A stretch of DNA of 64,000 nucleotides from NCBI GenBank assembly GCA_963726255.1, contig CAVSBL010000002.1, positions 576,001 through 640,000 of the forward strand. Reading direction: 5' to 3'. Below are positions 9,372-12,793 of the stretch, one piece after another. How positions within the stretch are numbered: position 1 is the stretch's first letter; each line of letters starts with the position of its first letter. Origin of the DNA: Candidatus Bathyarchaeota archaeon. GTDB taxonomy: Archaea; Thermoproteota; Bathyarchaeia; 40CM-2-53-6. The translations under genes were made by a program, and so were the position numbers. The notes under the pieces were generated by a model. That model was not told the origin of the DNA, did no database searches, and saw only the letters and a program-made list of their open reading frames with translations.

Positions 9372-11651
9372 CTAGGCCCAGTAGGTGACTGGCCACTCAG
9401 CATGGTTCGCCTGGCCGGAATCTCTCAACGCGGCTAAATCATATCCGAAGGGTAGTAGAAGGTTGACAGTTGAGGAAAGAAGCAGATCGACATACCTCTC
9501 TGAGTCGAAGACGGATCCTTCATCCATCAGCTCGGTGGGGAGAGCTCGGTTATGGTTTATTCTGGACTTGTCGTAGGTTAAGATGTAGTTGATTGTTTGC
9601 CCGGCGTGTACCTCCATGCCTTCCGCGGCGAGGTGCTTAGCCGCGATGGCTTGCGGAACCAGGTTTCTGTATTCGTTGGGATTCTTGCTGAGGTGTTTCT
9701 CGATCACGAGCTCTGCGACCGGAATGTTTCCGGTTCTGATTAGGTCAACGTATGACTTAACGACCGCCAGCACTTCGGGTATGAGCGCCATGAATTCCTC
9801 TGAATTGTTCGCCTTCGAGAGTGTGGTTAGCACATCCGTTTGACACCGCCTGACTATGCCGGCAGTGTCATGGCGGCGGAGGTCGATTCCTCTAACTTTG
9901 AGCTTGCCGTCCTGGAAGACTCCGTAGTACCGGTTGAGGACGGGGATTCGCGGGTCCGTTCGCGAGTTCAGGAACACAATCCACTTGTAGCGCCCCTCGA
10001 ACGCTATCGGGAAGTGCAGCTGCTCCTCTATCGTGCGGCATAGCTCCTCGTACTCATCTGGTGTTGCGTTAGGTTTCCAGAGCCACATCGAATCCACGAT
10101 GCCGTGTATGAGTTTGAAGCAATTGGATTCTGCAATCGCGACCGCTTCTCGCAGGATCTTCCGGGAGTAGGCACAGGTTGCGATGTGTGCGTCGATTCTC
10201 CCAAACCGCGCGTTCTTGAAGCCTAGGTATCCAATTGCCCGCCGCGTTCGAGGCGGCTATGAGCAGACTAGGATCCATTTGAGCGCGGCTTGGCGTTGAT
10301 CGTACCGCAACCTTGTAGGTGGGTCCATGGCTTCTTTTTTGTACTTCTTGTAAAGCGCACGTTTTCGGAGTAATATATCGAGCGACCTGGGTACTATGCC
10401 ATTCCATCTTTCACAAACATTCCACCCAAGCTCCGGTACTCGACTAACGGAGTCTGGGCAGCAGTTGCAGCGTATGGTTTCTCCGCTCAGGTTCATGTTG
10501 CGCATTATAGTTGGGTATAGGGAGGAGAAGTCGAGTTCGGCGACGGAGTCGTGTAGGCCGAATTTTGGTTCGTAAATGAAGCCACCGCGGTCCGCTAGTA
10601 TGAGTTCGTTTCCGTTCTTCCACTCCTCGGGCTCGTTCTTGTTCCAGGGGATTAATACGTCGGCTTTGACGGCGTGGTAGAGTTGGAGGGACGTCATGCT
10701 GGTGCCAATCGTCGTTCGCGAGGCCCTCTGCAATGGGATTATGCAGGTTCGGGCCACCTCGAAGAGACCTTCGAGGCCGCAGTCGCTGCTGATGAATCCA
10801 TTCGCCTCGTCCACATGCAACCGGCCCAGTAGTCTTGCGGCGGTTTGCTTGAAGAGTATCTTCCCGTACGAAAAGTAACTGTGGCCTTGCACTTCGTAAA
10901 CCCGAAGCGGCGAATCTTCCCTACCGAGAACCATTTTGTGGAGGATGTGGTGGTGTTGAGCACGCCTGGCCAAGTAGGGGAAAATGAAGGAGTCTCCGCC
11001 TTCCGTCAAGACTACATCCGGGTCAATCTCGCGGAAGGCTGTGACGAGTTTGTTGAGCTTGTCAAGTTCGCTGCCCGAGTCGAAAATTATGGTATCATTC
11101 TTGGTTTGGATTTTGATTAAGTCTAATTCATCTTCAAACCTTGAGATCCTGCAAGTCTTCTTAGTGCTGATTTCTAGCCGTATGTTTCGAAGTGTTGGCA
11201 GTTCGTAGTCGATTGTTTCACGGGAATCCTTGATGGTCCACTTAACGCGGCCATGAGATGCGTCAGCCTCGACGAACGCTAGGGGGAATAGGTCGTTGTG
11301 GTAGAGGTACATCTGAATTGATGGGATATCTACGTCGTAGAGCCTGAACTTCGAGTATCCACCATGCCGGAGGATCTTCCGTGCCAGAGTTTGGGCTTCT
11401 GATTCGTCGTTTACTTCAACTTCGAGAACGTTACTCTTAGTCTGGTCGCCTGCCCTCTCGAATTTCTCGACGAATGTGCATGATGGAATGAATGGTTGGA
11501 GGTTTAGGAGGTCGTCACGTTCTCCGCCAATGTGGATTCGCGGCTTCCAGCCGTCAACTAGCTTGACGCATGATCCGTCGCGCTGCTTGAGCCAGACAAC
11601 CATTTGGCTGGCTTTAGGGTAGAGATCCAAGATCCAGCCTTGATGTTTCAA
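9372..11651 (-). CDS. polB2: Family B DNA polymerase, PolB2 group; two exons (11651-10259 and 10234-9372), 751 aa after splicing
   Basis: ELDFSSLYPTIM (motif A); KWILVCS-[intron]-FGYLGFKNARFGRIDAH (motif B); HGIVDS in place of YGDTDS; NRYYG, KVRGIDLRRHD; the two track ORFs are in the same frame. Confidence 0.9.
10235..10258 (-). other. Putative 24-nt BHB pre-mRNA intron in polB2
   Basis: Sense GCUC-AU^A-GCCGC-CUCGAAC-GCGGC-GGGC-AA^U; removal gives TCA TTT GGA (S-F-G) and deletes the in-frame TAG. Confidence 0.85.
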
Positions 11652-11902
11652 AGGCCCCGCTCTTCGATTCGCTTCTCTAACTCGATGATTTTCTTGTGGT
11701 GCGCGAACAACATCGAAATAATCAGGGGCACCTGTTTTATTGGTGAGGCCATTACACTCGCCGCCGACGCTAGCAACTTACACTGATTCAACATATCTTC
11801 GAAAATGATTTTGTCTTCTTGCCTGAGAAATTCCTGAAACCTTTTCAATTTTTCAACCTCGGCCTCTACGACCATTCTCCATGACGGGATTGTTCGTCCC
11901 AT
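11648..11902 (-). CDS. PolB2-associated small alpha-helical protein (arCOG07300-like), 84 aa
   Basis: MGRTIPSWR...F..LR.ED...F..M motif; stop/start overlaps with the radA-like gene and polB2. Confidence 0.82.
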   Translation of the reverse strand: MGRTIPSWRMVVEAEVEKLKRFQEFLRQEDKIIFEDMLNQCKLLASAASVMASPIKQVPLIISMLFAHHKKIIELEKRIEERGL

Positions 11903-12651
11903 CACAGGTAACTCTCCAAAGTCTCTACCCCAAGCGAGGATGCTGTGGCGGTGCGTGGGGGAAGCCACGGATGTTTCAGTAGTGAAACTCGGGTCAGGCC
12001 GCCTTTTTCCTCGATTGTTGCGAAGACATGTACAGCCTGTGTAAGGATGCGATCCATTAGCGCGTTTCTTGATTCTATGTTCGTCGCAATTATCAGACAT
12101 TTTTGTTGTCGAGCGAGGCTTGCGAGATTTCTCGCGGCTTTCGCGAAAATGCGAAGTGCATCCTCTTTATCCTCGCCCCGTATATCCGGGTCGCAGTAGA
12201 GTTGCGTAATGTCGGAGACGACAACGAGTTTCGCCTTGAATTTCTTTATCGCAAGTTGGAGTTTGTCGGTTATGAGGCATGCGAGTTGGTGGTGGGTGAA
12301 AGCCCTACTGACATGCAGCCGTTCTAACACTGTCTCCGTGTCAAGGCCATGCTCAACTGAACGGTCTGAGATATAGTAAGGGTCGAAGAGGTTGCCGCCG
12401 TCAACGAATACCGTATCGCAGTCCGGACCCAATGGTTGCGGAAGTGTCGCCCTGACGCAGAGTAGCATAGAAAGGGCGTGTGCAGGTTTACCCTGAAACG
12501 TAGCAAACTGGCCGAAGTTGAGCCTCAAGATGCCGTCTAAGGCTTCCATGCCAGAGGTCAGATCAGGTTGCAACTGTTGACGCTTGCTTAGCAGAAGGTC
12601 GTTAACTTTGACGAAATTTTCGACAGCTACTTCACAATTCAATGGAGCCAT
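11902..12651 (-). CDS. RadA/RecA-fold protein lacking Walker A (PolB2-operon type)
   Basis: LTSGMEALDGIL, VFVDGGNLFDPY, LERLHVSRAFTHHQL, LVVVSDI; ATG at 12651 preferred over the track start. Confidence 0.82.
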   Translation of the reverse strand: MAPLNCEVAVENFVKVNDLLLSKRQQLQPDLTSGMEALDGILRLNFGQFATFQGKPAHALSMLLCVRATLPQPLGPDCDTVFVDGGNLFDPYYISDRSVEHGLDTETVLERLHVSRAFTHHQLACLITDKLQLAIKKFKAKLVVVSDITQLYCDPDIRGEDKEDALRIFAKAARNLASLARQQKCLIIATNIESRNALMDRILTQAVHVFATIEEKGGLTRVSLLKHPWLPPRTATASSLGVETLESYL

Positions 12652-12677
12652 AGAATTGCCGTGAAGAATGCAAGCAG

Positions 12678-12717
12678 ATAATCTGGGAGACCAGATTATG
12701 CGCATCTCTGTCAGAGA
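12678..12717. promoter_or_regulatory. Two palindromes upstream of the polB2 operon (candidate operator or 5' UTR hairpins)
   Basis: ATAATCTGG-gaga-CCAGATTAT (12678-12699) and TCTCTG-t-CAGAGA (12705-12717); minus-strand TTTACAT at ~12725-12731. Confidence 0.5.
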
Positions 12718-12793
12718 CACGTGAATGTAAAGCGTTCTGCATTTTGAGGCGTTCACTGAGGCTGGAAGTTGTTACGGAGTAAGGTGGTTCAAC

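Follow-up and report, generated by a model that had tools for sequence, protein, structure and literature searches.

The archaeal splicing endonuclease EndA acts on bulge-helix-bulge (BHB) motifs, cleaving each 3-nt bulge between its second and third bases, and transfer RNA (tRNA) and ribosomal RNA (rRNA) introns are removed in this manner. Here, we describe a 24-nt insert in polB2, a gene for a family B DNA polymerase, that is very probably removed from the messenger RNA (mRNA) by the same EndA/RtcB pathway as a BHB pre-mRNA intron. The insert lies in a stretch of 64,000 nucleotides from Candidatus Bathyarchaeota archaeon (contig CAVSBL010000002.1, positions 576,001 to 640,000), hereafter referred to as the window, to which all coordinates below refer. 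Among archaeal coding sequences, cbf5 is the sole one for which BHB splicing has been shown, according to the accessible parts of PMC2738675 and PMC7714728, and the former, as far as its accessible text goes, lists cbf5 introns in Desulfurococcales and Sulfolobales only. The available portion of PMC7714728 (2020) treats cbf5 as the only archaeal coding sequence with a BHB intron and adds one case in a 5′ untranslated region, while the available portion of PMC12397907 (2025) cites mRNA introns through the cbf5 papers only. Our own literature search, in which subscription journals and supplements were little covered, found no polymerase gene and no coding sequence of Bathyarchaeia for which a BHB intron had been reported. 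The pathway that we propose is the known BHB mechanism, and it is the host gene and the lineage that are new.

The polB2 insert has much in common with the crenarchaeal cbf5 intron. Both are short inserts in a coding sequence (16-44 bp for cbf5 in Table 1 of PMC2738675, 20-33 nt for polB), both show patchy gain and loss, and the cbf5 intron, in the accessible part of the same paper, often forms a relaxed BHB in hosts with a hetero-oligomeric EndA. The polB2 case differs in its host gene and position, motif B of PolB2, in its lineage, one family of Bathyarchaeia, and in that its splicing is deduced from sequence. Given that the same genomes also carry a cbf5 intron, as described below, polB2 would hold a second, independent mRNA intron in one organism. 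The BHB introns of archaeal tRNA and rRNA share with the insert a 4-bp helix between bulges, although the 3′ bulge of polB2 is relaxed, the cut at the second bulge base, which is predicted for polB2, and the presence of encoded EndA and RtcB, but in polB2 the substrate is an mRNA, the junction must keep the reading frame, and the outer helix is made of codons. HVO_1309 of Haloferax volcanii is also an mRNA processed by the splicing endonuclease, according to the accessible part of PMC7714728, but its BHB intron lies in the 5′ untranslated leader and leaves the coding sequence uninterrupted. A further parallel is found in HAC1 and XBP1, which are processed by IRE1 together with tRNA ligase or RtcB; they too contain a small mRNA intron that is removed independently of the spliceosome, with the full-length protein made only after splicing (PMC13149111, in its accessible part), but they rely on the IRE1 endonuclease, on stem-loop sites, and on regulation by stress.

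The polB2-type gene occupies positions 11651 to 9372 of the window, on the minus strand, and is split by an in-frame TAG at 10259-10257, after which the same frame remains open for 294 more codons, up to a stop at 9374-9372. Translation of the open reading frames (ORFs) agrees in this respect with the preliminary description of the locus, which had reported a gene cut by this TAG into two halves in one frame. It is the start of the 24-nt insert (10258 to 10235) that makes the in-frame TAG. Exon 1 (10259 to 11651, minus strand), whose TTG start at 11651 is putative and taken from the ORF list, encodes an exonuclease-like domain, motif A (DFSSLYP), and the beginning of motif B, ending in ...KWILVCS and a further T. 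Exon 2 (9372 to 10234, minus strand) begins with the TT that completes a Phe codon and continues with GYLGFKNARFG..., a degenerate motif C (HGIVDS), the thumb, and the stop codon. Pfam DNA_pol_B is matched by both halves, with residues 345-459 aligned to positions 41-159 of the profile and the second half to positions 282-450, and the first half also matches an exonuclease domain in Pfam. Excising positions 10258 to 10235 joins TCA T to TT GGA and restores KWILVCSFGYLGFK, which is the sequence of the uninterrupted orthologues; the predicted peptide over the spliced junction is WILVCSFGYLGFK.

On the sense strand, the site reads CCUAG UCU GCUC AUA GCCGC CUCGAAC GCGGC GGGC AAU UGGAUAC CUAGG, of which the intron itself (10235 to 10258, minus strand, like all elements of the motif) comprises A GCCGC CUCGAAC GCGGC GGGC AA, as delimited by the fold, the comparative data, and a covariance model (R1). 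The exonic strand of the central helix, GCUC (H5′, 10261 to 10264), pairs with its intronic strand, GGGC (H3′, 10237 to 10240), through one G-U and three further pairs. The 5′ bulge, AUA (10258 to 10260, predicted cut after 10259), forms the in-frame UAG together with the base that follows it, and leads into the intron stem-loop (h′, 10241 to 10257), in which GCCGC (10257-10253) and GCGGC (10245-10241) enclose the loop CUCGAAC. The 3′ bulge, AAU (10234 to 10236, predicted cut after 10235), is followed by a U-U mismatch. Exonic outer pairings extend over 10222 to 10272, with CCUAG (10272-10268) paired to CUAGG (10226-10222) and a proximal helix of 2-3 bp past one mismatch. The minimum-free-energy fold includes the GCUC/GGGC helix, the GCCGC/GCGGC hairpin, the AUA bulge, and the CCUAG/CUAGG pairing, and on the 3′ side it shows a 4-nt bulge, AAUU, and then 3 bp. 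Thus, most of the architecture first proposed for the site, namely the 4-bp helix with one G-U, the intron stem, and the outer helix, reappears in the fold, the last with mismatch-flanked proximal pairs. Of the two 3-nt bulges that had been proposed, AUA is clean, but AAU is followed by a mismatch and is drawn as part of the 4-nt bulge. The proposed cuts after the second base of each bulge, which remove exactly 24 nt, agree with both the sequence and the uninterrupted orthologues. R1 scores the polB site at 53.3 bits (E 6e-11), and in a scan of the genome it found this site alone, the next match reaching 15.3 bits (E 2.7); thus, the intron is not a multi-copy element.

The comparison among relatives was made on 88 distinct variants, with insert boundaries set by the exons. 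All four pairs of the central helix can form in each of the 88, against 2.8% of shuffled inserts, and in 85 of them the helix is accompanied by at least three consecutive stem pairs that adjoin it as well as the 5′ bulge, against around 3% of shuffles. The intronic strand of the helix reads GGGC in 46 variants, GAGC in 38, GAGT in 3, and GGGT in 1, and every one of these pairs with GCTC. The 5′ bulge is ATA in all 88, while the 3′ bulge is AAT in 72, AGT in 15, and ACT in 1. Loss of the BHB pairing in orthologous inserts, which the preliminary description had named as a sign that the intron is spurious, was looked for, and pairing was found to be kept, with compensatory changes.

Covariation was assessed in an alignment (A2) of 85 rows, consisting of the window and 84 metagenome variants, from which one locus (L113) was left out, its insert being identical to that of the window. 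In this alignment, 94.6% of cells pair, while slid partners pair in 29-57%. Two-sided changes occur at all five stem pairs; for instance, the second pair is C-G in 44 rows, G-C in 29, U-G in 7, and U-A in 2, and the fifth is C-G in 41 and U-A in 23. Double-change cells number 67, compared with 24.5±3.3 in shuffles, and none of 500 shuffles was as high. This covariation argues for selection on the RNA structure itself. The central helix is paired in 340 of 340 cells and the distal outer helix in 100% of cells (12 genome variants). The proximal outer helix, which consists of three pairs past one mismatch, is paired in 92.5% of cells (85 variants), but its columns, like those of the outer helix in general, are codon positions that are also under coding constraint, and we claim no selection for it. 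The 12 genome-derived variants taken alone show weak covariation, with one double-change pair, a value matched by 114 of 500 shuffles, and it is the larger sample that provides the signal.

The lengths of the inserts and the state of the reading frames around them point in the same direction. An exon-anchored pattern, which accepts any 16-40 nt at the site, finds the insert in at least 120 metagenome contigs, and the lengths among these are 20 nt (14 loci), 21 (13), 22 (11), 23 (2), 24 (25), 25 (13), 26 (4), 27 (4), 29 (1), 31 (3), 32 (28), and 33 (2). They thus range from 20 to 33 nt and are not a multiple of three in 76 of 120 loci. Every distinct insert (85 of 85) starts with AG or AA, which produces an immediate in-frame TAG or, in two variants, TAA. 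Since translation would meet a stop at once and most of the lengths break the frame, readthrough cannot make the protein. Under the splicing model, 114 of the 120 metagenome loci have two open exons, by the criterion that a frame extends over 400 codons or more upstream and 250 or more downstream, or else reaches the end of the contig. A stop bounds the upstream frame in 67 of the loci, and in 64 of these the open stretch measures 460-609 codons. The median ratio of nonsynonymous to synonymous substitution rates (dN/dS) is 0.107 for the N-terminal half (10 usable of 55 pairs) and 0.102 for the C-terminal half (11 usable of 55 pairs). These values come from 11 of the 13 intron-bearing genome loci, as a truncated one (L007) and a frameshifted one (L015) were left out, and in the remaining pairs dS is saturated, with dN between 0.13 and 0.34. 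Both halves of the gene are under purifying selection. A pseudogene, an eight-residue insertion made by readthrough, or an incidental hairpin is incompatible with these lengths, open frames, and dN/dS values.

A search for orthologues in 41 related genomes, with the C-terminal half as the query, revealed three states at this one codon: uninterrupted, intein-bearing, and with a short insert. The uninterrupted orthologues (17 loci) read ...TGC TC(A/G) TT(C/T) GG..., while the short inserts follow TCAT and measure 20 nt (4 loci), 21 (1), 23 (1), 24 (the window and relatives), or 26 (1), with the genome loci always showing the form GCTC ATA G...C GRGC AAT. When the exon-anchored pattern was applied to 401 genomes sampled across the class Bathyarchaeia, the insert was found in 21, all of them within the family of the window genome (f1). 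By genus, it is present in 10 of 23 genomes of g1, which includes the window genome, 3 of 3 of g3, 8 of 10 of g15, 0 of 22 of g2, and 0 of 1 of g14. Each of these genomes gave one match, and a reversed control pattern gave none; a narrower pattern used earlier had matched 13 of 105 genomes in the order. An artefact of assembly was considered and is ruled out, as the insert recurs in 21 genomes and in at least 120 contigs that are independent of one another.

A tree was built from 30 orthologues, with two loci falling outside the motif filter (L019 and L034) and the N-terminal halves of four others left out (L015, L022, L023, and L031). All 13 intron rows fall in one clade of 18 (Shimodaira-Hasegawa-like approximate likelihood ratio test, SH-aLRT, 100), whose other members are 4 uninterrupted rows and 1 intein row. 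On this tree, 4 changes of the intron state are required, or at least 3 by the starred branches alone. The simplest reading is one gain in family f1 followed by precise losses, gain and loss being formally inseparable on an unrooted tree. Uninterrupted rows are nested in the intron clade and therefore suggest losses that were precise, at an exactly defined junction. The comparison of polB2 among relatives, proposed from the start as a check, thus shows both the presence or absence of the insert at the same codon and a covarying stem.

The enzymes that such splicing would need are encoded in the window genome. Two genes score above the Pfam cut-off for tRNA_int_endo (PF01974), which corresponds to two EndA paralogues (L049:1468-2034, minus strand, and L050:1204-1767, plus strand), and there is one RtcB (PF01139, 571 bits). 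The 188-aa EndA has 3p1z_B as its best match in the PDB (7.7e-41) and also matches 3ajv_B, 2cv8_A, and 2zyz_B, all chains of two-subunit crenarchaeal enzymes, while the 187-aa paralogue is divergent, with a best match of 7e-15. The two would presumably form a two-subunit heterotetramer of the crenarchaeal type. According to the accessible part of PMC5829648, non-canonical motifs are cut only by the two-subunit and epsilon types of EndA, and the authors of the cbf5 study tie mRNA introns to the hetero-oligomeric type of the enzyme (PMC2738675, in its accessible part).

In fact, cbf5 provides a control within the same organism. In the window genome, this gene is in two pieces (G000:C2:296359-297331; around 1470-1510 of locus L172), with the break between GTL and DPK reading CCCU AGA GAC GUAACA GUC GGGG UAA, from which the cut rule removes 19 nt to give GTLDPKV. 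An insert of 17-21 nt between GTL and P is found in 29 of 30 loci from relatives (L182-L211), across the whole order; the cut rule restores GTLDP in 28 of these 29, and compensatory changes occur in both helices (CCCU/GGGG, CCUU/GAGG, CUCU/GGAG). To judge from these sequences, Bathyarchaeia of this order would evidently depend on mRNA BHB splicing for the essential cbf5. The polB insert obeys the same arithmetic.

Two further analyses concerned the tRNA introns and possible additional mRNA introns of the genome. The tRNA intron boundaries predicted by aragorn agree with the cut rule in none of 21 short-intron predictions, a control that is uninformative, as many of the anticodon calls look wrong. 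Aragorn reports 35 tRNA genes in this genome and introns in 31 of them, several implausibly long. One tRNA that it calls Ser-GGA reads as Ile-GAU under the BHB rule, with a 15-nt intron at 37/38 in a textbook hBHBh′ arrangement. The tRNA set is intron-rich, and the anticodon calls appear to be wrong where a BHB is present. A scan of the same genome for additional mRNA introns, based on a BHB combined with ORF fusion, went from 569 candidates to 36 with a short insert and long flanks and to 11 after a start-codon filter. The polB site was ranked first and none of the others was convincing, in a scan that required a 4-bp inner stem, so that it missed cbf5 and is not a census.

The mechanism that we favour, and to which we give high confidence, would proceed as follows. 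In the transcript, the 4-bp central helix would arise from the pairing of GCUC, which ends exon 1, with GGGC, which lies at the 3′ end of the intron, and it would be flanked on one side by the AUA bulge and the 5-bp intron hairpin and on the other by the AAU bulge and a loose exonic helix. A two-subunit EndA of the crenarchaeal type would then cut after the second base of each bulge, and RtcB would join the exons, creating the Phe codon UUU and restoring motif B. Unspliced mRNA would end at the UAG that arises from the 5′ bulge, so that production of the full-length polymerase would require the tRNA-splicing machinery. The view that this is a true pre-mRNA intron, already put forward in the preliminary description, is supported by the comparative data on all the fronts described above: presence or absence at a single codon, frame-breaking lengths, compensatory changes, selection, EndA and RtcB, and cbf5.

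Several observations nevertheless weigh against this interpretation. The predicted fold is not significantly stable (z = -1.41, with 20 of 200 shuffles at least as stable), and it is because of the comparative data, and not of the single sequence, that the motif stands beyond chance. The 3′ bulge borders a U-U or U-C mismatch, followed by an outer helix of 2-3 bp, which makes the motif a relaxed and not a strict BHB. At the fourth position of the stem, 24 of 85 variants lack pairing, and the exonic strand of the central helix is invariant, so that its changes are one-sided only (U-G in 45 and U-A in 40 at one pair; G-C in 81 and G-U in 4 at another). The exon frame is broken in 6 of the 120 metagenome loci. 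In one related genome (G003, locus L015 on contig C5), an extra base about 70 nt upstream of a 20-nt insert, GCGCAGTTA where relatives have GCGCGTTA, gives polB2 a continuous frame of 772 aa when unspliced and puts it out of frame if spliced; this may be due to misassembly, to decay of the gene, or to a loss of splicing in that lineage. As for distribution, the exon-anchored pattern matched none of 343 genomes of other families, but it fixes the exon sequence, and absence from those families is therefore not shown. Finally, we infer splicing, the excised intron, and the joined mRNA from sequence comparison, and likewise cleavage, ligation, and any regulatory use. Four sequencing runs from the same studies contained no match across the site, and the matches elsewhere on the window, two short contig pieces from a relative, came from a run that is probably DNA, so that this result bears on expression in neither direction.

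The competing explanations, even when taken together, strike us as improbable. We regard it as very unlikely that the insert is a conserved RNA element with a regulatory role, for instance a hairpin for pausing, attenuation, or the binding of a protein, in which case the cell would make mostly a 464-aa N-terminal protein, and the C-terminal part would be produced rarely or by another route. The universal in-frame stop and the strongly conserved hairpin are what such an element would predict, but constraint is equally strong in both halves, the C-terminal one lacks its own start, with the first start codon downstream as far as 45 codons past the junction, and both the geometry and the arithmetic of the junction fit EndA exactly.

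We see only a slim chance that the gap is crossed by translational bypassing, with the ribosome taking off at UCA, skipping the hairpin, and landing near GCA/AUU, with no splicing. As in gene 60 of phage T4, the stop directly follows the last decoded codon (in 85 of 85 distinct inserts) and a conserved hairpin begins right there, and frame-breaking lengths could also be tolerated in this manner. In contrast to gene 60, however, polB lacks matched take-off and landing codons and has the geometry of a BHB: the take-off codon UCA has no counterpart at the landing site, as the conserved 3′ end is GCAA followed by U and no UCA occurs at or near the 3′ end in any of the 85 variants. Furthermore, a hop into the GYLG frame would produce CS-I-G or CS-G, against the SFG of all 17 uninterrupted orthologues, and bypassing would leave unexplained both the 4-bp helix with two 3-nt bulges in 88 of 88 variants and the occurrence of the same geometry and cut rule in cbf5 of the same organisms. 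To our knowledge, bypassing is not known in archaea.

A similarly small probability applies to the possibility that the gene is broken, whether as a decaying pseudogene or as a gene split into two polypeptides, with the hairpin incidental or a remnant. According to the accessible part of PMC4104785, PolB2 proteins are widely held to be catalytically degenerate and split polB genes exist in other archaea, and the 6 of 120 loci with further frame breaks would also suit this explanation. However, dN/dS is around 0.1 in both halves, 114 of 120 loci have both open, and the downstream frame offers no start until 45 codons past the junction; in addition, the covariation indicates selection on the RNA structure, and the nested uninterrupted genes indicate precise losses. 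The remaining proposal, that the TAG is decoded by pyrrolysine or a suppressor and the 24 nt add eight residues to motif B, would suit the window insert, which is in frame and has a single TAG, but it is practically without chance, being refuted for the family by the 76 of 120 lengths that are not multiples of three, with two variants carrying TAA and the eight codons absent from all uninterrupted orthologues.

The codon that holds the intron is also the target of other insertions. Motif B had been pointed out as a recurrent intein site in family B polymerases, and inteins indeed occupy this very site in relatives. In two loci (L022 and L023), the intein sequence, with Pfam matches to Intein_splicing and LAGLIDADG_3, ends in ...HN immediately before SFGYLG, and the full set of intein loci comprises L022, L023, and L215-L217 (genomes G023, G040, G042, G053, and G047). 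Their insertion point is 4 nt from the intron site. Thus, family B polymerase inteins resemble the polB2 insert in place, but they consist of 400-500 residues and are removed at the protein level, and 24 nt cannot encode one. An intein was accordingly considered as the identity of the insert and ruled out, as 24 nt with a stop codon cannot be one and inteins occur at the site in other genomes only. Genus g2, in which no intron was found, has inteins in four genomes (G023, G042, G047, and G053) and is otherwise mostly uninterrupted, with open frames of 663-835 aa in 11 genomes, confirmed at the base level in G059 and G058. The open frame of G053 is 1654 aa long, which suggests that its polB2 holds more than one intein.

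Three other genomes of genus g2 (G050, G044, and G054; loci L212-L214 and L218-L220) carry one extra nucleotide at the intron codon, reading TGC TCC TTT C GGC TAC. Open codons number 460-462 in the upstream frame and 274-297 in the downstream one, with synonymous differences among the three. Either SFGYLG would be produced in these genomes through a +1 slip of tRNA-Phe (UUU to UUC), or the extra base is a context-specific assembly error. The convergence of intron, intein, and +1 insertion on one codon suggests that the site may be shaped by homing-endonuclease cutting or by selection for throttled expression. A doubtful version of the former takes the intron and the +1 insertion to be scars of repair after homing-endonuclease cutting, kept since the target is destroyed while the protein is still made by tRNA-type splicing or by frameshifting. 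If this were true, the RNA intron would amount to immunity against the intein. In a related reading, the intein, the intron, and the +1 slip may all serve to throttle a potentially mutagenic polymerase. With an intron, an intein, and a frameshift all sharing one codon, the question of how archaeal mRNA introns arose becomes open to direct testing.

For over two decades, no archaeal coding sequence other than cbf5 has been known to be interrupted by a BHB intron; polB2 would bring the number of host genes to two and add another lineage, one that is abundant in the environment. If so, mRNA splicing by the tRNA machinery is not confined to one gene, and the production of a DNA polymerase would be tied to the RNA-processing capacity of the cell. 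The more than 85 natural variants would define what this EndA tolerates in mRNA. There is also a warning for annotation, as calls of "split" or "pseudogene" polB in Bathyarchaeia would be artefacts of overlooked introns.

With respect to the identity of the host gene, the accessible part of PMC4104785 describes PolB2 as a group with degenerate catalytic motifs, whose operon also encodes an inactivated RadA and a small helical protein (arCOG07300). An uninterrupted orthologue (L010), 76-80% identical, aligns with PolB of Pyrococcus abyssi over residues 299-735, with KWILVCSFGYLGF against KILANSYYGYYGY at motif B and HGIVDS against YIDTDG at motif C. The NCBIfam models for type B polymerases NF004416 and NF004418 give matches below their cut-offs. 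Directly upstream of polB2 lies a gene of the Rad51/RadA family with a degenerate P-loop (11902 to 12756, minus strand; PF08423, 8.8e-11), which scores far below the equivalog cut-offs for RadA and Rad51. Between the two, the ORF list places a small ORF (11648 to 12100, minus strand), which had no family match in profile searches and which, by position alone, may be a candidate for the small helical partner protein of PolB2 operons. The PolB2 label of the preliminary description is thus reasonable, since the degenerate motif C matches the description of PolB2 in the accessible part of PMC4104785, and the Rad51-family ORF with the putative partner ORF resembles the operon arrangement given there.

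The assembly that holds the window has 2.42 Mb in five contigs, and its closest relatives by protein search are metagenome-assembled Bathyarchaeia. It was rated 98.5% complete with 9.3% contamination, and two of its contigs (C1 and C5) have identical stretches in common.

Other polB paralogues with an internal TAG in relatives were considered as possible carriers of BHB introns and were rejected: one has a point stop (L179), two have natural gene ends (L177 and L178), one has a 1-nt frameshift (L180), and one is a gene fragment (L181). The first of these (G006:C21:99300-102300, minus strand) is a family B paralogue with an intact DTDS and one in-frame stop without an insertion (425 + 272 codons), for which recoding, a sequencing error, or a point nonsense mutation may be responsible. 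Single-nucleotide frameshifts were seen in L031 (G036:C7), about 30 nt upstream of KW, and in L180 (G008:C18), at around 740-800, with no BHB nearby; both are probably errors or signs of decay.

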